Positions 14,647-61,575 of a stretch of DNA of 64,000 bases are shown here, piece after piece. Origin of the DNA: an uncultured Gammaproteobacteria bacterium (lineage in GTDB: Bacteria; Cyanobacteriota; Vampirovibrionia; LMEP-6097; CAYGPN01); contig CAYGPN010000007.1 in assembly GCA_964352085.1 (NCBI GenBank), forward strand, positions 27,725 through 91,724, read 5' to 3'. Within the stretch, counting starts at the first letter, position 1. Every line of letters starts with the position of its first letter. The position numbers and the translations under genes are program-made. The notes below the pieces were generated by a model. It saw only the letters and a list, made by a program, of their open reading frames with translations. It ran no database searches and was not told the origin of the DNA.

Positions 14647-14922
14647 ATGAAGAAAACAAAAATCTTAGGTGCTGCATTAGCTGCTGGTTTAACTGCAGGT
14701 GCTGCAAACGCAATCAACGTACCAGGAGTAGATACTAGTGCAAACACTCTATTTGCAATGGAAGAAGTAGCTTCTCCATCATTGCTTTTAGCTGGTCACG
14801 GTCAATGTGGCGCTGGCAAATGCGGTGGTGATAAGTCTTGCAAAGGTGATCACGACTGTAAAGGTGATCATGACTGCAAAGGCGATCATGATTGTAAAGG
14901 TGATAAGTCTTGCAAAGGTTAA
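14647..14922 (+). CDS. RiPP-type precursor peptide: Sec signal peptide plus a Cys/His/Asp-rich repetitive core (candidate copper-binding peptide precursor, BufA/HvfA-like)
   Basis: 91 aa. MKKTKILGAALAAGLTAGAANA (AxA cleavage site), then QCGAGKCGGDKSCKGDHDCKGDHDCKGDHDCKGDKSCKG, which contains seven Cys. It sits immediately upstream of the DUF692/DUF2063 pair and has a good RBS. Confidence 0.65.
   Translation: MKKTKILGAALAAGLTAGAANAINVPGVDTSANTLFAMEEVASPSLLLAGHGQCGAGKCGGDKSCKGDHDCKGDHDCKGDHDCKGDKSCKG
14821..14919 (+). repeat. tandem 18-bp coding repeat (about 5.5 units) encoding (C-G/K-G-D-H/K-D/S)n
   Basis: tgcaaaggtgatcacgac / tgtaaaggtgatcatgac / tgcaaaggcgatcatgat / tgtaaaggtgataagtct / tgcaaaggt. 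There is synonymous third-position variation between units. Confidence 0.85.
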
Positions 14923-14942
14923 TTGAGCTATACTAATAGTCA

Positions 14943-15857
14943 ATGACTTTTAAGAAAACTAAAATTAATAAATTTGGTTTAGGACTAGGGTTGAGGAGTG
15001 AATTGCTCTCCTCAACCCTTTCTTTTTGTCAAGAAAATCCTGAAAATGATCTTATTCAGTGGTTAGAGTTTATCCCTGAAAACTACGCTACTAAAGGTGG
15101 CAAGCATAGAAAAAGTTTTAGGCAAGCAGTGGATGCTGGCTTTCAGTTAATCCCACATTCAGTTTCTATAAGCATAGGAACCGCACCTAAAGAAAAGGGT
15201 GAGATAGTTTTTAATAAATATCTTTTGGATTCTTTGAAAGATATTTTCACTGAAGTAAAACCACCTTGGTTTTCTGATCATTTATCTTTTTCCTACATTG
15301 ATGGTATTTATCTTGAAGACTTAATACCTCTCCCAAGAACTCAAGAAGCGATTGATGTGGTTGCAGACAATGTTAAGTATCTGCAAGATGAATTTCAACT
15401 TCCTTTTTTGGTTGAAAACCCTAGTTACTACTCAAACATTATTCTAAGTGAGATGAAAGAGTATGAATTTTTAAACTCAATAGTGAATAAAGCAGATTGT
15501 GGTTTGCTTTTAGATGTAAACAATATTTATGTCAATTCTGTGAATCATGAATATGATGCTTTTAACTTTCTAGATAATATGGATCTTGATAGAGTGGTTC
15601 AAGTGCATGTGGCTGGGCATGATGCTGATTATAAAACTCCAAGTGGTGAGTTTTTAAAAGTTTTAGATACTCACGGACAAAAAACTTTGCCTGTTGTAAT
15701 GGAGCTTCTAGACAGGCTTTTAGAGAAGACAGAAGTTAACGGTATTCTTTTAGAAAGAGACGGAAATTATCCTGAAGATTTTAAAGAGATAACTGATGAG
15801 TTGAAAGAAATTCGCGCTGTCATGAATAAGCACGAAAAAGTTTTGGAGGTGGTGTAA
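14943..15857 (+). CDS. DUF692 / MNIO (multinuclear non-heme iron oxidative) enzyme, MbnB/BufB/HvfB-like
   Basis: 304 aa. It begins FGLGLGLR and has the TIM-barrel xylose-isomerase-like pattern with conserved His/Asp/Glu positions (PHSVSISIG, SDHLSF, ENPS, LLLDVNN, HVAGH). Confidence 0.8.
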   Translation: MTFKKTKINKFGLGLGLRSELLSSTLSFCQENPENDLIQWLEFIPENYATKGGKHRKSFRQAVDAGFQLIPHSVSISIGTAPKEKGEIVFNKYLLDSLKDIFTEVKPPWFSDHLSFSYIDGIYLEDLIPLPRTQEAIDVVADNVKYLQDEFQLPFLVENPSYYSNIILSEMKEYEFLNSIVNKADCGLLLDVNNIYVNSVNHEYDAFNFLDNMDLDRVVQVHVAGHDADYKTPSGEFLKVLDTHGQKTLPVVMELLDRLLEKTEVNGILLERDGNYPEDFKEITDELKEIRAVMNKHEKVLEVV

Positions 15858-16582
15858 TGGCAGTCAAGACTCCAAGCTTAAGAGAGCTGCAACAAGAGAT
15901 AAAAACTTTTATCTTAGAAAATAAAGAAGGCTCTGTAACTACTTTGCCCAAGCATGAATATGGCAGGCTTAGTATTTACCGTGACCTGATTTATAATATG
16001 ACCACAAATTTCTTTGGGGATGTTTTTCCGCTTTCATATAAATTTTTAAAAAGCGAGTGGAGATCTTTAGTCAAAGAATACTACTCTAAATACACTCCAG
16101 ATGATCCGATTTTGGTTTACATGGCATATAACTTCCCTCTATTTATTCAAGAAAAAGGAGTCGGTCCTGCTTACTTGGCTGAGCTTGCTCTTTATGAGTG
16201 GTGTGAGCTAGAAGTTTCTATTTGCAAGCCTGAAGAGAAGGAGCAAGGCATTAACCCAGCTCATTTGGTAATTGATTTTGAATATCCAGTTACAGACATT
16301 GCTATTGAAATAGAAAAAGATAATCTGTCATACGAGCCTGAGCAAAAGAAACAACAAATACTTTTTTACAGAGACCCTGAAACATTACTAGTAAAAACTT
16401 TTGTGCTTGCACCTACTACGGCGATTGCTATAGAGATGCTTGATAACGGAGCTAGCTTAGGTGAGATCGCTTTAAAGGTTAAGGAAGCTTTCTCATTGCC
16501 AAATGAGATGGATGAAAAATTAAGAACAGATCTATCTGCTTTAATAGCTTCCTTGCAAGATAAGGGTATACTGCTAAAATAG
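15857..16582 (+). CDS. DUF2063-family partner protein (MbnC/BufC/HvfC-like)
   Basis: 241 aa. The start overlaps the MNIO stop (TAATG). The N-terminal L..Q..F...I / RLSIYRDLIYN...FGDVFP motifs are typical of DUF2063 partners of DUF692 enzymes. Confidence 0.65.
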   Translation: MAVKTPSLRELQQEIKTFILENKEGSVTTLPKHEYGRLSIYRDLIYNMTTNFFGDVFPLSYKFLKSEWRSLVKEYYSKYTPDDPILVYMAYNFPLFIQEKGVGPAYLAELALYEWCELEVSICKPEEKEQGINPAHLVIDFEYPVTDIAIEIEKDNLSYEPEQKKQQILFYRDPETLLVKTFVLAPTTAIAIEMLDNGASLGEIALKVKEAFSLPNEMDEKLRTDLSALIASLQDKGILLK

Positions 16583-23867: not shown

Positions 23868-23962
23868 ATGGGCTCCCCTTGCTTGATAGAACTAATCTTA
23901 GAATATAGCTGTACTAAAAGTCAAATAATTGGCTAAATACTAGGGGAAACCCTGATGTTTTC

Positions 23963-24099
23963 TTGGATTGCTTCGCTGTCATCACGAGGAGCGTGGCGAC
24001 GTGGTGATCCAAGGATTGCTTCGCTATGCTCGCAATGACAATCGTCAGCTCGCAATGACAATCGTCAGCTCGCAATGACAATCGTCAGCTCGCAATGAC
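23963..24099 (+). repeat. dispersed intergenic repeat element, copy A (GGATTGCTTCGC ... CGCAATGAC family) with 3.5 x 20-bp tandem units
   Basis: ggattgcttcgc + tgtcatcacgaggagcgtggcgacgtggtgatccaa + ggattgcttcgc + (tcgcaatgacaatcgtcagc) x 3.5. It ends at the glnA stop codon. Confidence 0.85.
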
Positions 24100-38129: not shown

Positions 38130-39578
38130 GTGCCGGCCAATGTTTTAAAAGAAATCAAAGAGAAAAATCTGATCGAGAGATCAGCTGAGAAACTTGAATT
38201 TCCAGAATCTTCTACTGCAATTAAAAAGAAAGTTAAAAAGCTTTCAAAAGAGCTTTTTACTAAAGGATTTTCTGATTTACTTAGTGAAGATGATTTTTGG
38301 ATTGAAAATGGCTATCTAACAGCAAGCAGTTTTTCACTTAAAGGTTCTTGGAAAGGAGAAAAGCGAAATTGGGGGCATAGTATGCACTCTATGGCATCTA
38401 GATCAGGCTCTTTCCCTCCAGCTCTAACTAATTATTTTATAGAAAACTTCTCTAAGAAAAATCAAACTGTTTTGGATCCTTTCTCGGGAAAAGGCACCAC
38501 TCTTTTTCAAGCACTTTTAAGTGAAAGAAACGCTGTGTCTATCGACATCACGCCAGAAGCATATATTATGTCTGCTGCTAAAGCATCAGGTATAGATCAT
38601 GAAACAGCAGTTGAGTATTTAAGATCTATTAAACTGAAAAAAGATATTGAACTTATTAAAGGTGTGCCTGAAGAAGTAAAGATTTTTTATCATGATAAAA
38701 CTCTTGCTCAGATAGTATCTCTTCAAGAAGAGCTTATGAAAGATTATTCTTTTAAAGTTGCTTACCTTTCAGAGAAAGCACCATGTAAAGAGTTCTCTAA
38801 TAAGAAAAATATAATACCTAAATTAAAAGGTACTTTTGGGATTGAAAGAGCAGATTTGAAAAATAAAGATCTTAGAGCTAAGTGCTCTATCTATTGGATG
38901 GGAGTGATGATGGGAATCCTTCATGGTTCATCTGATCTAAGTTTGAGCGTGCCATGTTCTCATAGCTTTAGCATGTCACCTGGTTATGTAAAAAATTACA
39001 CTAAGAAACATGGCTTAATAAAACCTGACCGTGATGTGAAAGCGTGTTTGATTAAACGTTCAGAAAAACTGCAGTTTGATGGCGCGCCTAAGCGTGGTGG
39101 AAAAGTGATCTTGGGTTCTGCAATGGATATGCCACACTCACTTACTAATCAAATAGATTTGATAATAACAAGCCCGCCTTATTACACAGCTCAAACATAT
39201 GCTTGGGATAACTGGCTTCGTGAGTGGTTCTTAGGTTTTAATTTTAAAGAAGTGCGCACTAAAACTCTTCATACAAATGTAGAAGATAAATATCGTGCTG
39301 GAATGCATGACTATCTAAGAGATTCTTATCGTGTAATGAAACCGGGCACCTGGTCTTTTGTAGTTGTTGGTGATGTGATGAAAAAGATCAATGGTGGTAA
39401 GGATAAAAAACATCTAATTACTTCAAATGTGATTGCTGAAGAAGCTATGAAAGTTGGCTTTAGTGTTGAGCTTGTTATTAATGATGATATTCCGCCGGAG
39501 AATTGCTATAACCGCGCTTTCTTGAAAGAAGGTCAGGGATTGAAGCTTGATCGTATTGTTTGTCTTTATAAAAATTAA
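38130..39578 (+). CDS. orphan DNA methyltransferase (N6-adenine/N4-cytosine class) with apparently permuted motif order
   Basis: 482 aa. Motif I VLDPFSGKGTT sits at about aa 105 and motif IV IDLIITSPPYY at about aa 345. No restriction endonuclease gene is adjacent. Confidence 0.65.
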   Translation: MPANVLKEIKEKNLIERSAEKLEFPESSTAIKKKVKKLSKELFTKGFSDLLSEDDFWIENGYLTASSFSLKGSWKGEKRNWGHSMHSMASRSGSFPPALTNYFIENFSKKNQTVLDPFSGKGTTLFQALLSERNAVSIDITPEAYIMSAAKASGIDHETAVEYLRSIKLKKDIELIKGVPEEVKIFYHDKTLAQIVSLQEELMKDYSFKVAYLSEKAPCKEFSNKKNIIPKLKGTFGIERADLKNKDLRAKCSIYWMGVMMGILHGSSDLSLSVPCSHSFSMSPGYVKNYTKKHGLIKPDRDVKACLIKRSEKLQFDGAPKRGGKVILGSAMDMPHSLTNQIDLIITSPPYYTAQTYAWDNWLREWFLGFNFKEVRTKTLHTNVEDKYRAGMHDYLRDSYRVMKPGTWSFVVVGDVMKKINGGKDKKHLITSNVIAEEAMKVGFSVELVINDDIPPENCYNRAFLKEGQGLKLDRIVCLYKN

Positions 39579-39587
39579 TTGGCTTAA

Positions 39588-40223
39588 TTATTTCCCGAAA
39601 TTTTCTGGATCTTTTTTCCAGCTTGTTAATTTTTCAATTTGATTTTCTGAGATAGTACCATTTTCTTTAGCTACTTCAATCAGAGTTTCGTAATTGCTTA
39701 GTGTAGTTAAGGGGATGCCTGATTTTTCAAAAGCTTGATTAGCTTTTTCTAATTGATAAGTGAAGATTGCAGCTATGCCTAAAACTTTAGCGCCTGCTTC
39801 TTTAACAGCTTCAGCAGCTTGAATAGAGCTGCCACCTGTTGAAATTAAATCTTCTATAACGACTACTTTTTTATCTTTTTCTAAAAGTCCTTCGATTTGA
39901 TTAGTTCTCCCGTGTGATTTTGAGCCAGAGCGGATATAAATCATAGGAAGATCTAAAGCATCAGCAAGCCACGCAGCGTGAGGGATTCCTGCAGTTGCTG
40001 TTCCAGCAATGATTTCTGTTTCTGGATAATTGTTTTTTATGATTTCTAGAAAGCCATCTTTAATCATTTTGCGTACTTCAGGATATGACATAGTCATTCG
40101 GTTATCACAATAAATAGGAGATTTGATGCCAGATGCCCAAGTGAAAGGATCATCAGGTTTTAAGAAGACTGCTTTGATTTCAAGAAGTTTGCTTGCTATT
40201 TCTTTGGCTGTTGTTGTTGTCAT
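39588..40223 (-). CDS. pyrE: orotate phosphoribosyltransferase
   Basis: 211 aa. The PRPP-binding motif [13 protein letters not shown] is present. Confidence 0.9.
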
Positions 40224-40978
40224 ACTTTTGCTAAATTAATCTCTTCTAAAATTTCAGTGAAAGCTGCTTTAGAATCTGCAGCTTGAGTAACTGCTCTGCC
40301 TACTACTATATAGTCTGTTCCAAGCTCCATCGCTTCTTTAGGAGTGGTGACGCGTTTTTGGTCATTGCTACTTGTAGATTTTGGTCTAATGCCTGGAGTT
40401 ATAGTAATAAACTCTGGTCCAATTTTTTCTTTAATCATTTTTACTTCAAGTGGTGAAGCGACTATACCATCGAGTCCAGCGGTTTTAGTGTTTTGAGCTA
40501 ATTTTAAAACAGAGTCTTGAACTGAACCTGGAATGCCAAGCTCGTTATTCATAGTCTTTTCATCTGTGCTTGTTAGTTGAGTTACGCCGATTAAAAAAGG
40601 TTTTTTGCTGTTTGGTCTTCCACCCATAGATAAATCGTAATCACCAAAAGCTTCAGTCAAAGCTCCTTTAGCTGCTTTCATCATTTGAGTGCCGCCCGCT
40701 GCGTGTACATTTATAATGTCACACTCAAGCTTGGCTAAGTTACTCATAGCTTTATATACAGTAGTGGGGATATCGTGAAGTTTTAAGTCTAGGAAAATTT
40801 TAAGGTCTTGGTCTTTGAGGTATTTAATAATATCAGTGCCCTCAGAGTAGTAAAGTTCCATGCCTACTTTTACAAAGCGAAGATCACCTTTAAGCTTGGT
40901 GATTATATTTTTCACATGGTCTTTGCTGTTTACATCGAGTGCGATAATTACTCTTTCGTTAAAGTCTAAACTGCTCAT
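40220..40978 (-). CDS. pyrF: orotidine 5'-phosphate decarboxylase
   Basis: 252 aa. IIALDV...KVGMEL...DLKLHDIP motifs. There is a 4-bp overlap with pyrE. Confidence 0.85.
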
Positions 40979-41009
40979 TAATACTATCTTAGCTCATTTT
41001 ACTTATAAA

Positions 41010-42044
41010 TTATTTCCAGGCTAAGCCTTTAAGCTCAGAAATGTTTTTGATATCCATATCTTTAAGCTTTACTTGTAGCTCTTTAATAATATCTGGACAA
41101 GCATATGGGTTGATGAAATTCTCTGTGCCAATAGCAACTGCGCTAGCTCCTGCTAAGAAAAACTCTATAACATCATCAGCGCATGTGATTCCGCCCATCC
41201 CTATGATAGGAATATTTAGCTTCCTGCTCACTTCATAAATCATGCGAATCGCTACTGGTTTAATTGCTGGTCCTGAAAGACCGCCTGAGCCTCTAGCTAG
41301 AATTGGTTTTCTGCTATTAAGATCTATGCGCATACCAAGCAAAGTGTTAATTAGGCTAAGTCCATCAGCACCAGCTTTCTCTACAGCCACTGCCATCGAT
41401 ACTATATCTGTAATATTTGGTGAGAGTTTTACAAAGAGTGGCGTGTTCGCGCAAACTTTTTTGACTTCTCTAGTTAGCTCAGAAGCTAGCTCTTCGCTAG
41501 CACCAAAAAGAGTCGCGCCATCTTTAACGTTTGGGCATGAGATATTAAGTTCTAAGCCAGCTACGTTTTTCACTTTGGAAAGTTCACGTGCAACAGTCAC
41601 GTAATCTTCTATAGTAGAACCTGCGATATTAACTATGATCGGTGTATTTGTTTCTGATTCAAGCCATTTAAGATCTTCGTTGATTACTTTTTCTAGACCT
41701 GGATTCTGCAAACCAATAGAATTAAGCATTCCGCCAGGGGTTTCAGCAACACGTGGTGTGTCATTGCCTGAGCGCTCTTCAAGTGATGTGGCTTTAACTG
41801 CTATTGCACCAAGCTCGTTAAGATCATAAAATTTTGCGTACTCTCTGCCAAAACCAAAACAACCAGATGCTGGCATGATTGGGTTTTTCATTTTAATTCC
41901 ACAGATTTCTATTTCTAGTTTTGGGTCAATGATAATATTGCTTTTGTCATCACGAGAAGCAGGGCGATGTGGTGATCCATGGATTGCTACGCCTGCGGCT
42001 CGCAATGACGAGTTGTCGGTTCGCAATGATGGCTTGGTGTTCAT
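41010..42044 (-). CDS. pyrD: dihydroorotate dehydrogenase class 1B catalytic subunit; N-terminal 51 codons derive from a repeat element, so the true start may be the internal ATG at 41891
   Basis: The protein from [15 protein letters not shown] onward matches PyrD-1B. Upstream in-frame codons ([33 protein letters not shown]...) are encoded by repeat copy B. ATG at 42044 overlaps the pyrK stop (ATGA). Confidence 0.85.
41945..42030 (+). repeat. dispersed repeat element, copy B
   Basis: gtcatcacgagaagcagggcgatgtggtgatccatggattgctacgc + (tcgcaatgac N11) x 2. It is about 87% identical to the 5' module of copy A. Confidence 0.8.
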
Positions 42045-42886
42045 ATCGCTACCTCCTGCAATTCAAAGACCGGACCATCGCAACAAATCTTACTATATGA
42101 TTTCTCCCAAGCTGAAATTTCTTTGCCGACATTTTCTGTAGGCTTGCAAACACAAGCTAGGCACGCACCCACACCGCAACCCATACGCTCTTCAAGTGAC
42201 ATGTAAGCATCTGCTTTTTTGTCACCGATAAATAAAGGTACTTTCTTTTGGATAGCTTTAAGCATTGGGGTAGGTCCGCAGGTAAAGAGTGAGTCCCAGT
42301 TTTTGATTTCTTCTTCAGAGCTTTCTTTTGGATTGCCAGTGAAAAGATCTGTAACTAAACCATTATGTCCTTGACTTCCATCCATGGTTGAAACATAAAC
42401 ATCACCAAGCTCAGCAAATTCTTTTTCTAGGAAAACATCTTTTGCGCTATTGAAGCCAATTACAGCTTTGATCTTAGCGCCTTTCTTTTTAAGTTCTTTG
42501 GCGAGATAATAAAGAGGAGGTACGCCTATGCCACCACCAACCATAAGTGCGGTTTGACCATTTGAAACTGTGTCTGTTGGGAAACCCTGACCTAGAGGTC
42601 CAAGCACATCTAGTAGATCACCTTCTCTAGCTTTAGCAAGTTCAGCTGTGCCTTTACCTTCAACTCTATAAATCATATTGATAATGCGTTTTTCTTTATC
42701 AACGTCACAAATACTTATAGGTCTTCTTAAAATTGGATCAATGCCATTGCCGCATTTGATGTGTAAAAATTGTCCGGGTAAAAAGCTTTCTATTGGATAT
42801 TCACTAGGCGCGCAATACAGGTCTGTGCTGTAGATTTTGTCTGCAATCAAGGTGTTGCTTTTGACTTCTAGCTTTAATCTATCCAT
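42041..42886 (-). CDS. pyrK: dihydroorotate dehydrogenase electron-transfer subunit (FAD/2Fe-2S)
   Basis: 281 aa. An FNR-like fold and the C-terminal Cys cluster ([10 protein letters not shown]) are present. Confidence 0.85.
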
Positions 42887-42957
42887 GGATTTTCTTTGAA
42901 AGGCCTTGAGCCTAGTTAATTCTAGCAGATTCTAGACTTTTGTATATACCTACATGC

Positions 42958-43021
42958 TGGGGTCAGACCAGATTAAGACTTCTAATTTATATATTACGTC
43001 CCTTAATCTGGTCTGACCCCA
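42958..43021. promoter_or_regulatory. perfect 20-bp inverted repeat with a 24-nt AT-rich spacer in the pyrK / 43052-gene divergent region (candidate operator or hairpin element)
   Basis: tggggtcagaccagattaag (42958-42977) is the exact reverse complement of cttaatctggtctgacccca (43002-43021). The spacer contains TATATAT. Confidence 0.6.
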
Positions 43022-43051
43022 GGAGGGTGAGCACTGATATGATTAAGCGGT

Positions 43052-43702
43052 ATGAGTTTCCAAATCAGACCACTTAGAGGCTTTTTAGCGATTTTTGGAC
43101 TAGCAGTTTTAGCAGTAATTTTGCTGCAGATGCAACCTTATGAAGTAGCCAAGCCAATTATAAAAGAGCACGGTCCTATAGAAACAGCATCTGTTTTTAT
43201 CTACATCGCAGCTGGCTCTATGGCGATTTACCTTGCGATGAAAAATCATTGGGAGCGCGCGCTGATGGCAGCTCTATTTATTTTTCTTATGGGCGCGCGT
43301 GAGCTAGATGCTCACGTAAAGTTCACCTCTATGAACTTTGCTAAAACTAGATTTTTTATAAGCCCAAAGGTCCCAATGATAGAGAAAGTTTGGGTGACGA
43401 TATTTTTAATAGCTTTAGTGGCTGGGCTTTATTACTTTGCTAAAATTCATTGGAAAAATTTCGTGATAGCAATGAAAGAAGGAAGATCTTATGTCTACAC
43501 AATGGTTTTAGCAATTGGCTTTGTGCCACTTTCTAAAATCTTAGATAGTCTTCCTAAAGCACTTCGAGATCATTTCCACATCCCAGTTACTGATGAGCTT
43601 AGACTCTTTACAGGAATCTTTGAAGAAGTTATGGAGTTAATGATTCCAGCACTTTTCCTTTTGGCTATGATTCAGTTTCTTAGATATAAGTCAAAGAGAT
43701 AG
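43052..43702 (+). CDS. hypothetical polytopic membrane protein (216 aa)
   Basis: About 6 predicted TM helices. No recognised family. Confidence 0.45.
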   Translation: MSFQIRPLRGFLAIFGLAVLAVILLQMQPYEVAKPIIKEHGPIETASVFIYIAAGSMAIYLAMKNHWERALMAALFIFLMGARELDAHVKFTSMNFAKTRFFISPKVPMIEKVWVTIFLIALVAGLYYFAKIHWKNFVIAMKEGRSYVYTMVLAIGFVPLSKILDSLPKALRDHFHIPVTDELRLFTGIFEEVMELMIPALFLLAMIQFLRYKSKR

Positions 43703-43705
43703 TCT

Positions 43706-43796
43706 ATGGATTGCTTCGCCAGTAGGCTCGCAATGACGACTATGCTCGCAATGACGACTAAGCTCGCAATGACGACTAAGCTCGCAATGACAGCTA
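43706..43796 (+). repeat. dispersed repeat element, copy C, with 4 x 18-bp tandem units
   Basis: tggattgcttcgcc agtagg (gctcgcaatgacgactaa) x 4. The last unit overlaps the carB stop codon. Confidence 0.85.
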
Positions 43797-46700
43797 GACT
43801 GCTAGCTCTTCTTTCTTTTTAGTTTTTTCAGGCAATGCTTCAACAGAAAAAGCAATAGTCTCTAGTGCTTTTAAAAGTGCGTGCGCAGTATCAAGTGATG
43901 TTATGCAAATAGCACCTTTTTCTACAGCCTCTCGTCTGAGCTTGAAGCCATCTGAGCTTGAAGCTTTGCCTTTTGTGATTGTGTTTATGATTAAATCTGC
44001 TTCACCATTTTTAATTACATCCATAATATTTGGTTCGCCCTCTTCAAGTTTCGCAATTTTTTTAACTTGAATACCATTTGCAGCAAGCATATCTGCTGTG
44101 CCTGAAGTTGCCAGCATTTTAAAACCTAGATCGTTATATCTTTTTAGAATTTTAAGCGCGTATTCCTTATCTTTATCAGCAACCGTCGCTAAGATGGTTC
44201 CACTATGAGGGATTTTCATGCCAGCAGCTATCAGAGCTTTGTAAAGTGCTTTATCAAAAGATCTATCTTTGCCCATCACTTCGCCAGTTGATTTCATCTC
44301 TGGACCAAGCGCTACTTCTACAAGATCCAATTTAGCAAAAGAGAAAACAGGAGCTTTTACTGAAACCATTTCACTTTCTGGATGATAACCAGCTTTAAGA
44401 TCATGTTTCTCGAGTAAAGATTCTAGGCTCTCACCTAGAATGACCTTAGTAGCAATATTTGCCATAGGCACATCAGTGACCTTACTTAAGAAGGGTACAG
44501 TACGTGATGATCTAGGGTTTACCTCGATTACATAAACTTGATTTTGAGAAATAACAAATTGAATATTTATGAGTCCTCTAGTGTCTAGTGCAAGCGCTAC
44601 TTTTTCTGTTATGTTAATAACCTCTTCTTTAATATGCTCGTAGATAGTCTGTGGAGGGTAAACAGCGATTGAATCACCTGAGTGCACGCCCGCTCTTTCT
44701 ATATGCTCCATGATTCCAGGTATGATTACGGTTTTTCCATCAGAGATTGCATCTACGTCCATCTCGCGTCCAATCATATAGCGATCAATTAGTACTGGAT
44801 GCTCTGGATTAACTTTTACAGCAGCTTGCATGTAAGTTAAAAGCTCGTCTTTATTGTAAACAATCTCCATCGCTCTACCACCTAGTACATAAGAAGGTCT
44901 AACTACTACAGGGAAACCCAGTTCGTCAGTAGCTTTAACGGCTTCATCCACTGAAGTGACAGTTGTGCCAAGAGGCTGCGCTACATAAAGTTCTTTAAGA
45001 AGCTCTTCGAATTTCTTGCGGTTCTCTGCTCTATCTATATTCTCTAAAGATGTACCTAAGATCTTAATGCCTCTGTCAGCTAGTGGCTTAGCTAGATTGA
45101 TAGCTGTTTGCCCGCCGAACTGCACAATAACTCCAATAGGATTTTCTTTTTCAATAACATTCATCACGTCTTCTATAAAGAGCGGCTCGAAATATAACCT
45201 GTCTGAAATACTAAAGTCTGTAGAAACTGTCTCAGGGTTGTTGTTTATAATTACAGCCTCGTAACCTGCTTCTTGAATGGCTCTTACTGCATGAACAGTC
45301 GCGTAATCAAACTCAATACCCTGACCAATACGAATAGGACCTGAGCCCAGTACTAGCACTTTCTCTTTAAGAGATTTGGTGACCTCGTCTTCATCCTCAT
45401 AAGTTGAGTAGTAGTAAGGGGTAGCAGCTTCAAATTCAGCAGCACAAGTATCTACCATCTTAAAAGTAGGGACTATGTGGTTCTGTAGTCTAAACTCTCT
45501 AACTTTCTCTTCGGTAAATTCTTCTTTGCCACTATCTTTCTTAAGTGCCGCAATAATATAGTCAGTGAAACCTGCTCTTTTAGCATCATATAGAAGCTCA
45601 GGACTTAGAGGTTCTTCTTTGATTTGCTGCTCCATATTAATTATGTTTTGTAGTTTGTTTAAAAACCATTTGTCTATTTGCGACCAGGCATGAATTTCAT
45701 CTATTGTAATTCCACGACGAAGAGCATCAGCAACTAAGAAAATTCTCTCATCATCAGCTCGTCTGATTCTTTCTTCAAGCTCATAATTATCGATTTTATC
45801 TGAGCCAGGAAGCGCTAGGTGCACTAAATCTATCTCAAGTGAGCGAACAGCTTTTAAAATAGACTCTTCAAAAGTCCTGCCAATAGCCATGACCTCTCCA
45901 GTCGCTTTCATCTGTGTTCCCAGTCTACGATTAGCTTTAACAAATTTATCAAAAGGCCATCTAGGGATTTTAGAAACTATGTAGTCTAGAGCCGGCTCGA
46001 AACTCGCATACGATTTTTTTGTAACGGGGTTTTGTAGTTCATCAAGCGTGTAACCAATAGCAATCTTTGCTGCCATCTTCGCTATCGGGTAACCAGTGGC
46101 TTTAGACGCTAGAGCACTAGATCTACTAACACGAGGGTTTACTTCAATTACGTAATATTTAAAACTATGCGGGTCAAGCGCGTATTGTACATTACAGCCA
46201 CCTTCTATTCCTAGCTCACGAATGATTTTAAGAGAAGAAGATCTCAGCATTTGGTATTCTTGATCAGCTAAAGTTTGGCTGGGAGCTACTACAATACTAT
46301 CTCCAGTGTGCACGCCAACTGGATCGAAGTTTTCCATATTACAAACAACAATGCAGTTATCGTTTTTATCGCGCATTACTTCGTATTCTATTTCTTTAAA
46401 ACCTGCGATGCTGCGCTCTACAAGACACTGATTGATGGGGCTTTGCTTAAGACCCGAAGTCAGTACTTCTTTTAACTCTTCTTCATTACTAGCAATTCCA
46501 CCACCAGAACCACCAAGTGTGTAAGCTGGTCTAACAATAAGTGGGTAGCCTATTTCGCTCGCAAAAACTAAAGCTTCTTCTATCTCGTTTACAATAACGC
46601 TTTCAGGAATTGGCTCAGCAATTTCATGCATGAGTGATCTGAACTCTTCTCTATCTTCAGCTTTTATAATACTTCTAAGTTTTGTACCTAGAAGTTCTAC

Positions 46701-47036
46701 GCCTTCTTCAGCAAGAACCCCACTTTCAGCTAACTCTTTAGCTAGGTTTAGTCCAGTTTGACCGCCAAGAGATGCTAGTAAACCATCAGGTCTTTCTTTT
46801 AGAATAATTTTTTTAACATACTCAGCAGTTAGAGGTTCTATGTAAACTTTGTCTGCCATCTCCTGATCAGTCATGATCGTAGCTGGGTTGCTGTTAATTA
46901 AAACTGTTTCGATGCCTTCTTCATTTAAAGCTTCTAAAGCTTGGGTTCCTGCATAATCAAATTCTGCAGCTTGCCCTATTACAATGGGTCCGGATCCTAT
47001 TACTAGAACTTTTTTTAGTTCGTTTCTTTTAGGCAT
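43794..47036 (-). CDS. carB: carbamoyl-phosphate synthase large subunit
   Basis: 1080 aa with two ATP-grasp halves plus the MGS-like C-terminal domain. Homology is unmistakable. Confidence 0.95.
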
Positions 47037-47105
47037 TTTATTGATTTTCCTTTATAGATTCTATCTTATAGGCGCAAGAAATACACATTAACTTCTAAAA
47101 GATAG

Positions 47106-49040
47106 ATGAAACATGTATTAAACCTCCTTAACACAGTTGATAAGCTCAATTCGCTAAACTTAGCTTTGAGGACAATTAGGGAGAGATTGATGAATAAGAA
47201 TAATGTAGCGGCTTACAATACTTTTGTGAGGATTTTGGCTTTAGGGCAGCCCTTATTTGCTGAGGTAGACACGATTGATACTTTTAAGGGGCAGCCTGAT
47301 TTTGTAAAAATTAATAGTTCAGTTAAGCCTATTTTTATTAGAGCATATCATAATGGTGTTGTTACTTTAGGCAAAACCGAAAATGATGAAGCTAAAAAAA
47401 TTGGCACAATTGATCAATTAAGATCACTTCATCAAGAAGATCCTGAGCGTGCAGCAAGTATCTTTTCTGTATTTATTGAGGATGAAAAGAAAGAACCTGG
47501 ACTTGCTATTTTGCTTGCCGGTTTAAGAAATCTGGAGGATGATCCAAAGAAATCTGAAAAAGAACTTTCTATGTTTCTTATGAGCCAAGGTTTACCCTCT
47601 GATGTTGCTAGGCAGTTTGAAGAGCGTTTTGGTTTAGATAAAGCTATTGAGTTATATGAAAAGCTCCTTGATGGTAACGGGTCGCATCCGAGGAAGAGTT
47701 ATTTTGCTAAACGTTTGCTTGCAATTTACCGTGAGCAAGAAGATTTTGACAAGATTCAAAGAATGTCAGCTAGGCTCAATTCTGATGAGTATAAAGATCC
47801 AAGAGGTATTTATGGCTTAACAGCAAGATATGAAAAAGAGGGTAAAAGGACTGAATTAAAGGCTCTGCTTAAAAAGTTAGTGAATGCTAGCCCATTGCCA
47901 GAGTTTTACTATGCAGCATTTGACCTTGCAAAATTAGCTCGCTTACAGTTTGAGGATGCTGAGATTGGGGATTTGAAAGGAACCTTAATCAAGCTTTTCC
48001 AGGTACCTTTCCACTCTGACTGTGCATTTGAAGGTAAAGATAGCAATTTAAGTAATATAGATGAAATGGCAAAAGAAGCTTTTGGTTTAGAAGGAGCCAT
48101 AAAGTTTTTTGAAGATTCAAAAGAAGAGATTCTAAGTATAACTAAAAACCCAGAATATAAAATGAAGAAAGAGTATTTAGCTACTGCTGTTGATTTCAGA
48201 ATAGGTTATTTCCATTATCTTAACGGCGATAAGGAAAAAGCTATTGAAATTTTCTTTAAGATGGCTAAGGCTGATGAAATTAAGCGTGAAAACTATTTGG
48301 ATTATTTAGAAGCTATTACTGAAACTGACCAAGAGCGTTTTAAGGTGCTGGCTAAATTGTACAAAGGTAAATATCCTGATGCTTTGGTGGAGTCGCTTGA
48401 GATTTTGGCTAAAAATGGTAAGCAGGATTATGCCTTTAAGTTTTTGAAAAATCTATACTTAAAGAGATGTGAGAGTAGCGACTCATCTGAAAATATAATG
48501 GAAGTAGCTAAAATGCTTGTTGAAGAGCTTGAGAAAAAGGAAGAAGCTTATGATTTACTATCTTTCTATTCAGAGCGTTTTAAACTTCATTTCTCTGGAG
48601 CTCTTGAAACTATTAAGTACTTAAAAATGCAAGCAAAGCTATCGAAAGATCTAGGCAAGAATGCTGAAGCTGAAAAGATTTTATCAGAGCTTTCTGACTC
48701 CTTGGTCCAACTTTACAGCGGCATGAGGTATAAAAGTTCTAAATTCACGAATAGGCTTGTCTGTAGATCTGTACTTAGGGTTGAAATAATTAAGTTGGCT
48801 ATAGAGAGAGGTAAATATGAAGAAGCGGTCAATTTCATTCATGGAGTTCTGTCAGATTCTGAAAAACTATGTCCTGAGAACGCAAGTCTGGTAAAAACTT
48901 TGGCTAGCTTGTATAAGAAACTTGGCAGAACAAAGTATGCGGAAAAGACACTAGAGCTCTTGCGTGCAAGTTACCATCCTGAAATCAGAGACAAAAAGAT
49001 TGCGAAGCTTGAAGATTTAACAAAGCAAATAGAGGCTTAA
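47106..49040 (+). CDS. hypothetical alpha-helical protein (644 aa) inserted between carB and carA on the opposite strand
   Basis: Clean ORF. Predicted all-helical/TPR-like, with no signal peptide. Confidence 0.5.
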   Translation: MKHVLNLLNTVDKLNSLNLALRTIRERLMNKNNVAAYNTFVRILALGQPLFAEVDTIDTFKGQPDFVKINSSVKPIFIRAYHNGVVTLGKTENDEAKKIGTIDQLRSLHQEDPERAASIFSVFIEDEKKEPGLAILLAGLRNLEDDPKKSEKELSMFLMSQGLPSDVARQFEERFGLDKAIELYEKLLDGNGSHPRKSYFAKRLLAIYREQEDFDKIQRMSARLNSDEYKDPRGIYGLTARYEKEGKRTELKALLKKLVNASPLPEFYYAAFDLAKLARLQFEDAEIGDLKGTLIKLFQVPFHSDCAFEGKDSNLSNIDEMAKEAFGLEGAIKFFEDSKEEILSITKNPEYKMKKEYLATAVDFRIGYFHYLNGDKEKAIEIFFKMAKADEIKRENYLDYLEAITETDQERFKVLAKLYKGKYPDALVESLEILAKNGKQDYAFKFLKNLYLKRCESSDSSENIMEVAKMLVEELEKKEEAYDLLSFYSERFKLHFSGALETIKYLKMQAKLSKDLGKNAEAEKILSELSDSLVQLYSGMRYKSSKFTNRLVCRSVLRVEIIKLAIERGKYEEAVNFIHGVLSDSEKLCPENASLVKTLASLYKKLGRTKYAEKTLELLRASYHPEIRDKKIAKLEDLTKQIEA

Positions 49041-50302
49041 GCTAAAACTTCTTCTTTAGGCTTGGCCCTAACTATATTGTCAAAAAACTTTTCAAAAAGT
49101 GAGCCTGTGTCTCTCGGTCCAGGCATAGCTTCTGGGTGAAACTGCACTGAGAAAGCGTTGTGGCGTTTGTGTTTTAATCCTTCGACTGAATCATCATTTA
49201 CATTTACAAAACTAGCTTCAAGCTCAGTGTCTTTAAGTGATTCATCATCAACTGTGTAGCCATGATTCTGTGATGATATGTAGACTTTATTTGTTTCTAG
49301 ATCTTTAACAGGATGATTACAGCCTCTATGCCCAAATTTCATTTTGCTAGTATTGGCGCCATTAGCTAGAGCAAAAAGCTGGTGACCAAGGCAAATACCA
49401 AACAATGGATAATTAACTTGCACAGAGCGAATCAGCTCTAAAGCATGCTCTACATCTTTAGGATCACCAGGACCATTAGAGAGAAGCACGCCATCAGGAT
49501 TTATTTGTTTAATTTCTTTGTAGCTTACATTGTGCGGGACGACAGTAACATCGCAGCCATAATTAATTAGAGCTCTTAAGATTCCTTGCTTGTAACCATA
49601 GTCAACAAGCACTATACGGTGACCACTACCCGGACATCTAAATGTGCTTTTAGTAGAAACTATTTCTACTTGATTAGTCATAAGCTCGTTGCGTAATTTA
49701 TCTTTAGCTAGTTTATTTAGCTCTGAGCTAGAGGTTATTAGATTTTTAGATCTTGTAATATCAACACCTGGTTCAAAATCACCAGCTTCATTGAAAATAC
49801 CTGGAGTGAAAACTCTATTTTTAGTAAATAGGCTAGCGTTGCCCTCTGTATTTTCTTCTGTCTTAGAGCTGGTTTCAATTATGCCTGGAACGATAATAGC
49901 TTTCATGCTTCCATGATCTCTAATAATTTTTGTAAGCTTGCGTGTGTCAATTCCTGAGATTCCTGGAATTCCAAATTCTTTTAGTAGATCATCAAGAGTT
50001 CGTTGGCTTCGCCAGTTACTTGGCTGCTCGCAATATTCTCTGACTACAAAACCATGCACAAAAGGTCTAAGTGATTCAAAGTCTTCCTGGTTAATCCCAT
50101 AGTTTCCGATTAAAGGATAAGTCATGGTGATGATTTGACCGCAGTAAGAAGGATCGCTAAGTATCTCTTGGTAGCCAGTCATCCCAGTGTTAAAAACAAT
50201 CTCACCAAAGCTTTCTTTGCTTGCGCCAAAGGCATCACCAATAAATTCTGTCCCATCTTCTAGAATGAGCTTTGCTTTTAGTTTTTGTTTTTTTTCGTTC
50301 AC
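49037..50302 (-). CDS. carA: carbamoyl-phosphate synthase small (glutamine amidotransferase) subunit
   Basis: 421 aa. The GATase triad region (GICLGHQL, HNxE) is present. There is an about 40-aa insertion in the inter-domain linker. Confidence 0.9.
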   Translation of the reverse strand: MNEKKQKLKAKLILEDGTEFIGDAFGASKESFGEIVFNTGMTGYQEILSDPSYCGQIITMTYPLIGNYGINQEDFESLRPFVHGFVVREYCEQPSNWRSQRTLDDLLKEFGIPGISGIDTRKLTKIIRDHGSMKAIIVPGIIETSSKTEENTEGNASLFTKNRVFTPGIFNEAGDFEPGVDITRSKNLITSSSELNKLAKDKLRNELMTNQVEIVSTKSTFRCPGSGHRIVLVDYGYKQGILRALINYGCDVTVVPHNVSYKEIKQINPDGVLLSNGPGDPKDVEHALELIRSVQVNYPLFGICLGHQLFALANGANTSKMKFGHRGCNHPVKDLETNKVYISSQNHGYTVDDESLKDTELEASFVNVNDDSVEGLKHKRHNAFSVQFHPEAMPGPRDTGSLFEKFFDNIVRAKPKEEVLA

Positions 50303-50342
50303 GCTTTCCTTCTCTTTTCTCTTTTTGGCACCGGTGTGACAT

Positions 50343-51308
50343 TTATGTGCATATAGCCCTTTCTAAAACAGCCATTCTGATAGCCACTCCGTTTGCAACT
50401 TGTTTGTAGATAAGTGATTTTTCACCTTCTACTAAAGTTTCATCAATTTCTATGCCTCTATTGAAAGGAGCTGGGTGCATAATCATTGCAGATGGCTTCA
50501 TCATCTTAGATCTTCTTTTTGATAAGCCGTAATTTTCTAAATAATTTTCTTTAAACTCACTACTATCTTTAGTCCAACCAACTTTGGCGTACCTGTCAGC
50601 ATGCCTTTCTAATTGGACGCGAAGCATCATCACCACGTCAGCTTCTTTAACTGCTTCGTCCACTGAAACTATCTTTGCGTTATTTTCTAGGTCTTCAAGA
50701 TTTGGCATGAAATTTTCTGGTCCGCTAAAAAGTACTTCAGCACCAAGTTTCTTCAGTGCGTACATATTTGAGCGAGCTACTCTGCTGTGTAAAATATCAC
50801 CAATAATCGCTACTTTAAGACCTTCGATCTTTCCGTATTCTTGTTTGATGGTTAGAAGATCTAGTAAACACTGAGTTGGGTGTTCATGGGTGCCATCGCC
50901 AGCATTTATAATTGCAAGATTTACTTTAGGAGCAATTTCTTGAAGCACATGACCATCTGGGTGTCTAATGATTACAAGATCAGTGCCCATTGCTTCCAAA
51001 GTTTTTACTGTGTCATAAAGAGTTTCACCTTTTTGGGTGCTTGAACTGCCAGGCTGGAAGTTCAAAACATGCGAGCCTAATTTTTTAGCTGCCACTTCAA
51101 AAGAAAACCTAGTACGAGTGCTAGGTTCAAAAAATAAATTGCATATAACTGAGTTTTCTAAAGGTTGTTTGCTTATGCCTTTAACGTTTTGGAGGCTTGA
51201 TACTTGAGACCAATATTCCCCTCTTTCTAATAATTTAAAAATTTCTTCCTTGCTCAGGTCTTTAATACCCAAGAGATGCTTTCTAGACGTAGTCTGAGTT
51301 AAGCTCAT
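50343..51308 (-). CDS. pyrB: aspartate carbamoyltransferase catalytic subunit
   Basis: 321 aa with STRTR and HPxQ motifs. Confidence 0.9.
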   Translation of the reverse strand: MSLTQTTSRKHLLGIKDLSKEEIFKLLERGEYWSQVSSLQNVKGISKQPLENSVICNLFFEPSTRTRFSFEVAAKKLGSHVLNFQPGSSSTQKGETLYDTVKTLEAMGTDLVIIRHPDGHVLQEIAPKVNLAIINAGDGTHEHPTQCLLDLLTIKQEYGKIEGLKVAIIGDILHSRVARSNMYALKKLGAEVLFSGPENFMPNLEDLENNAKIVSVDEAVKEADVVMMLRVQLERHADRYAKVGWTKDSSEFKENYLENYGLSKRRSKMMKPSAMIMHPAPFNRGIEIDETLVEGEKSLIYKQVANGVAIRMAVLERAICT

Positions 51309-51372
51309 CTTTAGCCTAATGTATTATAGCTCTATCTTGTAGAGATATTCAAGTTTAAATTTAAAAGATGGA

Positions 51373-51400
51373 TGGATTGCTTCGCTGCGATCGCAATGAC
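51373..51400 (+). repeat. dispersed repeat element, copy D (single unit)
   Basis: ggATTGCttcgctgcgatcGCAATgac: a hairpin with a 5-bp ATTGC/GCAAT stem. Confidence 0.75.
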
Positions 51401-59701: not shown

Positions 59702-59797
59702 TGGATTGCTTCGGCTTTGCCTCGCAATGACGGTTTGGATTGCTTCACTACGTTCACAATGACGGTTTGGATTGCTTCACTACGTTCACAATGACGG
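59702..59797 (+). repeat. dispersed repeat element, copy E: whole 32-bp element tandemly triplicated
   Basis: tggattgcttcggctttgcctcgcaatgacgg followed by (tttggattgcttcactacgttcacaatgacgg) x 2. Confidence 0.85.
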
Positions 59798-59802
59798 TTT
59801 TT

Positions 59803-60096
59803 TTAAGACCAAACATCTAAAATATCGCCACAGAAAGCTGATTCTAGAAAACTAAATATACCGCCCCAGCCAAGTGTTTCTAAAGCTAGTTTTGATCTGC
59901 GTTTGTCTTTTAAAAGTTTGCGTGAGATTTTCTTTCTCAGTTCAAAGTAGTTAACCTTAAGGTCTTTAAGGTCACTAACAATATTAGGTAAGCTTTTTTG
60001 AAAGTTTTTTACTCTTTCTGAAAAGTCTTTTATCTGCGCATTGTTTTCCATGCGCGCAGCTAATTGTTCACCAAGATTAATAAGTAAGTTTGCCAT
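59803..60096 (-). CDS. hypothetical protein (97 aa)
   Basis: ORF only; predicted helical. Confidence 0.35.
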   Translation of the reverse strand: MANLLINLGEQLAARMENNAQIKDFSERVKNFQKSLPNIVSDLKDLKVNYFELRKKISRKLLKDKRRSKLALETLGWGGIFSFLESAFCGDILDVWS

Positions 60097-60910: not shown

Positions 60911-60987
60911 CGGGATGTGGCTCAGTTTGGTAGAGCGCTTCGCTTGGGACGAAGAGGTCCCAGGTTCAAATCCTGGTATCCCGACCA
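60911..60987 (+). tRNA. tRNA-Pro (anticodon TGG)
   Basis: cgggatgtggctcagtttggtagagcgcttcgcttgggacgaagaggtcccaggttcaaatcctggtatcccgacca is 77 nt and folds as a cloverleaf, with anticodon loop cttggga. Confidence 0.88.
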
Positions 60988-61430: not shown

Positions 61431-61499
61431 ACAAATAGATTATATATTAAAAATATCTACTATGCATAAAAGCTTCTGTGCCTTTAGTTGATTTTTCTA

Positions 61500-61575
61500 G
61501 CTTGCTTCACCTTCGCTTCGCAATGACAAGCTTGTGCTTCGCAATGACAAGCTTGTGCTTCGCAATGTCAATATT
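61500..61575 (+). repeat. dispersed repeat element, copy F, with 3 x 21-bp tandem units
   Basis: tagcttgcttcacc + (ttcgcttcgcaatgacaagcttgtgc) units. The last unit is degenerate (cgcaatgtcaatattcg). Confidence 0.8.

Follow-up and report, generated by a model that had tools for sequence, protein, structure and literature searches.

In-frame fusions produced by small palindromic repeats are documented, notably for the Rickettsia palindromic elements (RPEs), with intragenic ERIC, BOX, and QMITE elements carrying open reading frames (ORFs) as well (PMC10969869). The RPEs are short, dispersed palindromic repeats inside unrelated housekeeping genes, where they leave the frame unbroken and are translated as an extra peptide at structurally tolerant sites, and in these respects they are the closest described counterpart of the locus reported here (PMC10969869). 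This locus lies in a 64,000-nucleotide (nt) stretch of contig CAYGPN010000007.1 from an uncultured bacterium, which we call the window. Here, one copy (copy B) of a dispersed palindromic repeat is located inside the 5' end of pyrD, the gene of the catalytic subunit of a class 1B dihydroorotate dehydrogenase (DHOD), directly after its overlap with pyrK. The original prediction for this locus, made from the DNA alone, regarded such an insertion as an unusual consequence of a mobile repeat, which is overstated in view of the in-frame fusions already documented (PMC10969869).

The pyrK-pyrD junction and repeat copy B

The pyrK gene (42041-42886, minus strand) encodes the 281-amino-acid (aa) electron-transfer subunit of DHOD-B, as indicated by the ORF list, the Pfam domain DHODB_Fe-S_bind, and the synteny in relatives. 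It is followed by pyrD (41010-42044, minus strand), which has 344 codons, including the repeat-derived leader. The stop codon TGA of pyrK (42041-42043, minus strand) overlaps the start codon of pyrD (42042-42044) in the sequence ATGA (42041-42044, minus strand), so that the translational-coupling junction originally proposed agrees with the ORF coordinates. A Shine-Dalgarno (SD) sequence, AGGAGG (42052-42057, minus strand), lies within the 3' end of pyrK, 7 nt before the ATG. Scored with a generic anti-SD sequence, it reaches -11.7 kcal/mol, compared to a window median of -2.9, being the second strongest when this site is ranked together with the 44 long ORFs of the window.

The junction CAGGAGGT is common to all four relatives that lack the repeat (L003, L004, L206, and L207), with the conserved SD-plus-overlap pattern CAGGAGGTxGCxxTxTGA. 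In these relatives, a GTG start codon overlaps the pyrK stop codon, either as GTGA (L003, L004, and L207) or with an overlap of 8 nt (L206). The gene order carB-x-pyrK-pyrD-pyrF-pyrE is also found in L003 and L004, while the shorter contigs of L206 and L207 hold pyrK-pyrD, followed by pyrF in L207. The junction is 100% identical to the window in contigs of two separate sequencing runs (ERR3534979 and ERR3534980), over 2.6-5.4 kb, so it is not an assembly artefact.

Directly after the overlap, the window exceeds L004 by 117 nt, of which approximately 90-102 nt are copy B. Based on the homology to the other copies, copy B extends over about 102 nt (41936-42037, minus strand), corresponding roughly to T3-N36 of the translation, with the repeat peptide spanning codons 6-30 of the PyrD leader. 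Its first tandem unit is a degenerate terminal unit, ATCATTGCGAAC (42019-42030, minus strand), with two mismatches to GTCATTGCGAGC; it is located 21 nt before the next unit, fitting the 18-21-nt tandem periods of copies A, C, and F. The core arm, GTCATTGCGAGC-CGCAG-GCGTAGCAATCC (41981-42009, minus strand), is an exact match to the family core, and its GCC/GGC inner-stem variant is also found in metagenomes, with CATTGCGAGCCGCAGGCGAAGCAATC among the arms. The inverted arm, GGATCACCACATCGCCCTGCTTCTCGTGATGAC (41946-41978, minus strand), forms an 11-bp stem with the core arm, where ATCAC/GTGAT replaces ATTGC/GCAAT. Copy B and copy A (23977-24024) are 88% identical over 48 nt. The GC content of the copy B core is 0.55, compared to 0.40 for the rest of pyrD. 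The leader as a whole has a GC content of 0.50 and a third-codon-position GC content (GC3) of 0.44, against 0.40 and 0.29 in the remainder of the gene, and R, S, H, and D residues are overrepresented in it.

Copy B belongs to a dispersed repeat family and lies within a conserved ORF, whose frame it keeps without introducing a stop codon. Of the three sense frames, that of pyrD alone is open, the remaining two being stopped at the TAG in GCGTAGCAA or at TGATGA. The equivalent frame of copy A is closed by TAG, and the two copies differ here in an inner spacer of 3 nt versus 5 nt. Since the 5-nt spacer is a normal variant of the family in metagenomes, the open frame of copy B looks like survivorship rather than repair. 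The original prediction described 51 open codons, encoded largely by the repeat, before the first residues that align to PyrD-1B. The open frame and the contribution of the repeat both hold, whereas the lengths do not: homology already starts at K42/L43, leaving a leader of about 41 codons, and the repeat accounts for only about 102 nt or 34 codons (42037-41936) and not for the whole leader.

Full-length homology to DHOD-B and the pyrK partner directly upstream place the protein in PyrD-1B. Residues 6-298 of 1EP1_A align to PyrD residues 42-334 (E = 2.6e-109), and the top Foldseek matches for the AlphaFold2 model are 1EP2_A and 1EP3_A, with about 298 columns aligned to the L. lactis DHODB. Codons K42-M52 (41889-41921, minus strand) encode the conserved N-terminal beta-hairpin of PyrD-1B, which ends at an internal ATG. 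In an alignment of 40 sequences, conservation reaches at least 90% at L43 and G49, and the N-terminal strand is retained in all of the best 120 of 8000 PyrD homologues, the set on which our homologue comparison is based. The corresponding strands of the relatives, KLAVDLCGIK and KVSVELCGIQ, are similar at the protein level to the intact, in-frame strand of the window. The AlphaFold2 model shows no secondary structure for residues 1-40, with predicted local distance difference test (pLDDT) values of 37-63, predicting that this region is disordered. From about residue 41, the pLDDT is approximately 96, and the strands E45-47 and E50-52 are confident.

In the best 120 homologues, the distance from the PyrD start to the NP(I/V)M motif is 11-52 residues and usually 14-20, compared to 53 residues in the window. 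The four repeat-free relatives, which are the closest by PyrD identity (L003, 81%; L004, 77%; L206, 76%; L207, 74%), have 14-35 residues before NP, and their N-termini are unrelated to the leader in the window. Extra N-terminal residues occur elsewhere: L003 has 21, unrelated in sequence, and the homologues P0012 and P0066 have 30-40. The unrelated extension of L003 indicates that the N-terminus of PyrD is variable and tolerant.

All four relatives carry an uninterrupted pyrD at the equivalent site, and no repeat units were found in the 1.9-8.5 kb fetched for each of them. The alignment with orthologues lacking the element, suggested as a check in the original prediction, shows a shorter or different N-terminus at the same place in each. 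From these comparisons, we infer that copy B was inserted into an existing pyrD. The upstream end of copy B resembles the inter-unit spacer of copy E, and its downstream end matches copy A through AAGCAAT. An insertion of 90 nt would fit an L206-like site and one of 99 nt an L004-like site, 102 nt being a further candidate; an empty-site allele might, for example, read ATGAACA|TTATCATT or ATGA|GCAATATT. That every candidate length is divisible by three simply follows from the preserved frame, and the boundaries are ambiguous among the three because no close relative with an empty site is available. The exact L206 empty site ACYAAGCCA^AATATT (90 nt) was considered and set aside, as MAFFT and the positional homology of the strand favour other boundaries.

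The repeat family in the window and in metagenomes

The sequence CTCGCAATGAC, allowing at most one mismatch, occurs 13 times in the window, compared to 0.78 expected, a count not attained in any of 100 shuffles; GGATTGCTTCGC, allowing at most two mismatches, occurs 12 times, compared to 3.9 expected. Together with the identity between copies A and B, this excess confirms that the dispersed repeat is real, as first proposed. The core matches group into six loci, A to F. On the minus strand, the family core arm reads GTCATTGCGAGC-N3-5-GCGAAGCAATCC. The family is modular, and the first 12 nt or so of the core arm, together with the spacer, are often amplified as tandem units of 18-21 nt. The inverted arm of copies A and B reads GGATCACCAC.TCGCC..GCT.CTCGTGATGAC, and it is this arm that the two copies share at 88% identity over 48 nt. 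The arms pair via an 11-bp stem, which contains two G-U pairs on the minus strand and C-A mismatches on the plus strand. The GC content of the repeats is 41-55%, that of the window 37%.

Copies A, C, D, E, and F are intergenic, and all six copies have the same orientation. Copy A (23958-24099, minus strand) starts 0 nt after the glnA stop codon and consists of a full palindromic doublet with four 20-nt tandem terminal units. Copy C (43705-43793, minus strand), with one core arm and four 18-nt tandem units, starts 2 nt after the carB stop codon and fills the gap between the convergent carB and a membrane-protein ORF. Copy D (51367-51400, minus strand) consists of just one core arm and is located 63 nt beyond the rpsA stop codon, just past a terminator-like hairpin. 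Copy E (59702-59795, minus strand) has three tandem core arms and lies 7 nt after the stop codon of the ORF at 59803-60096, and copy F (61498-61570, minus strand), a degenerate arm with 21-nt tandem units, lies 7 nt after the lnt stop codon. For copy B, the distance to the pyrK stop codon is 4-10 nt. Copies C and E make up essentially the entire spacer between convergent genes. The period of the tandem terminal unit differs between copies, with 20 nt (four units) in A, 18 nt (four units) in C, 32 nt (three units) in E, and 21 nt (two to three units) in F, which suggests slippage or unequal exchange after insertion.

Beyond the window, GGATTGCTWCGC-N3-5-GCTCGCAATGAC is found in at least 120 metagenome stretches (L085-L204), on contigs with a GC content from 35% to 72%; across this range, the core of about 27 nt is near-identical among the matches listed. 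The usual form in the metagenomes is an inverted doublet of GTCATTGCGAGGAGCGAAGCGACGAAGCAATCC, about 20 nt, and GGATTGCTTCGCTTCGCTCGCAATGAC. The core also occurs 33 times, unannotated, on the Novosphingobium resinovorum megaplasmid NZ_CP017076.1. In copies A and B, the inverted arm corresponds to the upstream arm of the metagenome copies with ATCAC/GTGAT in place of ATTGC/GCAAT, a variant that keeps the arm's own small hairpin, and a similar ATCGC/GCGAT variant, with the pairing kept, is found in metagenomes. The inner-stem complementarity is not significant compared to shuffles (2.86 versus 2.49), and we therefore take the structural conservation as suggestive only. One metagenome stretch (L113, 3909-4903) holds eight core matches, seven at a spacing of 121 nt and the eighth 242 nt further, and is a tandem array of a longer unit containing the palindromic doublet. 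We also looked for other intragenic copies among the metagenome matches by means of spanning ORFs, and this was given up, as contigs of high GC content give long spurious ORFs that are uninterpretable.

An Rfam scan of the repeat gave no match, and searches of the literature with DNA and peptide strings, which returned unrelated primer matches or nothing, yielded no published name for the family. At the protein level, an exhaustive HMMER search with the 42-residue leader against 1.84 billion representative proteins found no real relatives; its two matches are eukaryotic mucin-like repeat proteins and were rejected as spurious. A word-indexed protein search with the same leader returned zero candidates and missed the source protein as well, making it uninformative.

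Translation start and origin of the PyrD leader

Copy B is best read as a member of a dispersed, non-coding REP/REPIN-like palindromic family (REP, repetitive extragenic palindromic) whose copies in this genome lie shortly after gene ends. A copy landing 3' of pyrK would have fallen within the first few codons of pyrD, since the stop/start overlap leaves no intergenic space; the usual position of the family at the 3' flank of a gene, combined with the pyrK-pyrD overlap, would thus put copy B inside pyrD. It may have survived because its length keeps the frame, because the pyrD frame is the single stop-free sense frame, and because PyrD-1B tolerates variation in the tail at its extreme N-terminus. 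The conserved AGGAGG would still be followed by initiation at the ancestral coupled ATG (42042-42044), and the ribosome would read through the repeat. PyrD would thereby gain an extension of about 35-39 residues, 30-34 of them repeat-encoded and predicted to be disordered, in front of the usual N-terminal beta-hairpin and TIM barrel. Judging from the sequence comparisons and the structure model, the coupled ATG is probably used and the repeat translated as a disordered passenger tail. The conservation of the SD sequence and the junction, together with the open frame, supports the first of the two options in the original prediction, in which the repeat, inserted in frame, is translated as an extension of the N-terminus and the coupling site is kept.

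Upstream of the conserved strand, the pyrD frame has just three canonical start codons, ATG1, TTG7, and TTG14, so the ribosome would read repeat-derived codons from any of them. A start at one of the TTG codons within the repeat, at codon 7 (42024-42026) or codon 14 (42003-42005), would give a shorter and uncoupled tail. As the sole other starts before the strand, they deserve mention, but neither has an SD-like sequence (about 0 kcal/mol), and the strong, conserved SD sequence and ATG lie just 18-39 nt upstream, so that we regard such a start as very unlikely. The second option of the original prediction is an internal start, which corresponds to codon 52 (M52, 41889-41891; MKNPIM...). The repeat would then be effectively intergenic, the coupling lost, and the open frame fortuitous. 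An ATG is indeed present there, many homologues also have M at this position, the organism often does without an SD sequence, one promoter-like match ends at 41890, and we estimate that a stop-free run of about 34 codons has a chance of about 0.2 in one frame. Starting at M52 would nevertheless delete the N-terminal strand with the near-invariant L43 and G49, because this strand lies before M52 and in frame; it is kept in all of the best 120 homologues and, in the window, is intact and similar in protein to that of the relatives. Promoter-like sites in the region are not enriched over shuffled sequence (7 versus 6.9 expected), and the SD score at M52 is only -3.3 kcal/mol, against -11.7 for the intact ancestral SD sequence and ATG. 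The poor SD sequence is weak evidence against an M52 start, because the organism uses SD sequences weakly. Two homologues (P0018 and P0022) appear to start at the M of MKNP; they are gene-caller truncations, since the DNA of one of them (L205, 1463-1501) shows an SD sequence and an ATG 13 codons upstream of MKNP, where pyrD overlaps pyrK by 15 nt. Overall, the internal start is improbable, and the evidence favours the first option.

The leader could also be an old, lineage-specific extension of PyrD or an assembly artefact, with a coincidental resemblance to the repeat. The length of the PyrD N-terminus does vary, as seen in L003 (21 additional residues) and in P0012 and P0066 (30-40), but copy B matches the family core exactly and copy A at 88% over 48 nt, the leader has a GC and amino acid composition foreign to that of the remaining gene, and the assemblies made independently from two runs agree exactly, which makes this explanation extremely unlikely. 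A different question is whether copy B acts at the RNA level. Within operons of E. coli, REP/BIME elements stabilise the mRNA upstream of them. Liang, Rudd and Deutscher reportedly found in 2015 that expression of the upstream gene can drop when a REP lies within about 15 nt of a stop codon. Given this behaviour in E. coli, an RNA-level effect on the pyrK/pyrD balance is a reasonable minor rival, in which copy B would be retained as a REP-like 3' stabiliser, a staller of the pyrK ribosome, or a brake on the PyrK:PyrD ratio. All copies are sense-oriented and lie 0-10 nt (one 63 nt) past a stop codon, and the stem between the arms keeps its G-U pairs on the transcribed strand only, both of which speak for this reading. 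Against this, there are only six copies, and compact spacers together with selection against promoter-proximal insertions could give the same pattern; opening the start region is predicted to cost 15.4 kcal/mol, a value intermediate between two relatives without the repeat (11.4 and 18.0 kcal/mol) and not clearly different from theirs; and the repeat has no Rfam match. The repeat is not a terminator, because it lacks a U-tract, and the promoter and terminator scan found no terminator-like feature in it; the GC skew shows nothing relevant. Retention for an RNA-level role is unlikely on this evidence, and such a role would be compatible with copy B also being translated.

Several points weigh against translation from the coupled ATG through an inserted repeat. 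We infer the start codon from sequence features, and SD use is weak in this organism, with only 25% of the long ORFs scoring -6 kcal/mol or better. Initiation or elongation could be hindered by the 11-bp hairpin, which begins about 35 nt into the ORF. Even the nearest PyrD shares only 81% identity, and no close empty-site relative is at hand, which leaves room for an older, pre-existing leader. Finally, neither a target-site duplication, among the six copies, nor a mobilising enzyme, in the 64-kb window, was found.

More speculatively, the sense orientation and the proximity to stop codons might reflect a positional rule, due to 3'-end targeting or a function in the 3' untranslated region, and the near-identity of the core on contigs of 35% to 72% GC and on Novosphingobium megaplasmids would imply an unusually broad, possibly undescribed mobile superfamily that crosses phyla. 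We consider this doubtful, and the stop-proximal pattern of the six copies could equally reflect selection in compact intergenic regions. If such a rule were true, the element would be driven into the following ORF wherever two genes overlap, so that new N-terminal tails arise with coupling preserved, and the family could provide a handle on the site choice of REP-like elements and on the seeding of new protein termini.

Genomic setting and comparison with known repeat classes

The pyrimidine region of the window (39588-51308) also holds carA, pyrB, pyrK, pyrF, and pyrE. The best named matches of CarB and PyrD are from Bacillales, at about 70%, in addition to metagenome-assembled genomes labelled Melainabacteria or Gammaproteobacteria, while other genes of the window look typical of diderm bacteria (AstA, type II secretion system protein F, and Lnt). 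A horizontal acquisition of the pyr cluster is possible, judging from these matches. Between carB and pyrK, on the opposite strand, lies a 216-aa ORF (43052-43702, plus strand) without a Pfam match; L003 and L004 have ORFs of 139 and 214 aa at the equivalent position and strand, also without a Pfam hit, which are likened to it by position alone. Beside pyrE, a 482-aa ORF (38130-39578, plus strand) matches an N6/N4 DNA methylase domain only at residues 31-145.

Elsewhere in the window, a candidate cluster for a ribosomally synthesized and post-translationally modified peptide (14647-16582, plus strand) is led by a 91-aa ORF, in which 18-nt tandem repeats (14827-14934) encode Cys-rich GD(K/H)xCK units. 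It continues with an enzyme of the MbnB/TglH/ChrH family (DUF692; 14943-15857) and a DUF2063 protein (15857-16582). A 48-nt inverted match with 85% complementarity (8846-8893 and 60927-60974) corresponds to tRNA genes on opposite strands, 52 kb apart.

If translated as proposed, copy B would be a clean example, outside Rickettsia, of a selfish palindromic repeat built into a core metabolic enzyme. The phenomenon is already known from Rickettsia, and the locus is a new example rather than a new principle. It would also indicate that a junction for translational coupling can withstand an insertion of this kind. For annotation, it serves as a warning that gene callers may keep a repeat-derived leader or wrongly cut pyrD at the internal ATG; truncated overlapping pyrD genes are already present in public data (L205; P0018 and P0022).

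Compared to other pyrK-pyrD operons coupled through ATGA or GTGA, the window shares the 4-nt overlap and the SD sequence inside the upstream gene with its relatives, another of which has the 15-nt overlap mentioned above. It differs in the structured, GC-richer repeat 4-10 nt past the coupled start.

The MITEs, transposable elements of the miniature inverted-repeat type (Correia/CREE, ERIC, BOX, RUP, Nezha, and QMITE), are likewise small, non-autonomous, and co-transcribed, have inverted ends, and occasionally form in-frame fusions (PMC10969869). The repeat described here has the inverted arms and differs from MITEs in lacking a flanking direct duplication, with no consistent target-site duplication at any of the six copies when the flanks were inspected by eye. 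A parent insertion sequence with matching terminal repeats is not known for it.

The likeness to REP, BIME, and REPIN elements is closer. These have imperfect-palindrome units of about 27-33 nt without coding capacity, occur at high copy number, often form inverted doublets that fold into a long hairpin, are located after gene ends and between the genes of operons, and are mobilised by RAYT tyrosine transposases. The hairpin is found here as the ATTGC...GCAAT stem with a small inner stem, and the doublet is found in copies A and B and in most metagenome copies, with a gap between the arms of about 20 nt in the metagenomes and 2 nt in copies A and B. In contrast to REPs, the repeat has no 5' GTAG-type head, its tandem terminal unit of 18-21 nt is unusual, and translated intragenic copies are atypical. 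No RAYT or other transposase is encoded among the ORFs of the 64-kb window, and a crude HUH-motif screen around sampled metagenome copies detected no RAYT, its sole match being a HIT-family protein.

The RPEs are about 100-150 bp long and form Rickettsia-specific families, each with a conserved peptide ORF and a large intragenic share. The sequence of the repeat in the window is unrelated to them, five of its six copies are intergenic, and the insertion site is extremely N-terminal, across a coupling junction. Membership in an RPE family is not indicated, as the leader and Rfam searches gave no relatives, these searches being made without a side-by-side comparison to the RPE consensus sequences. 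Copy B resembles the REP/REPIN elements in its architecture and the RPEs in its outcome.

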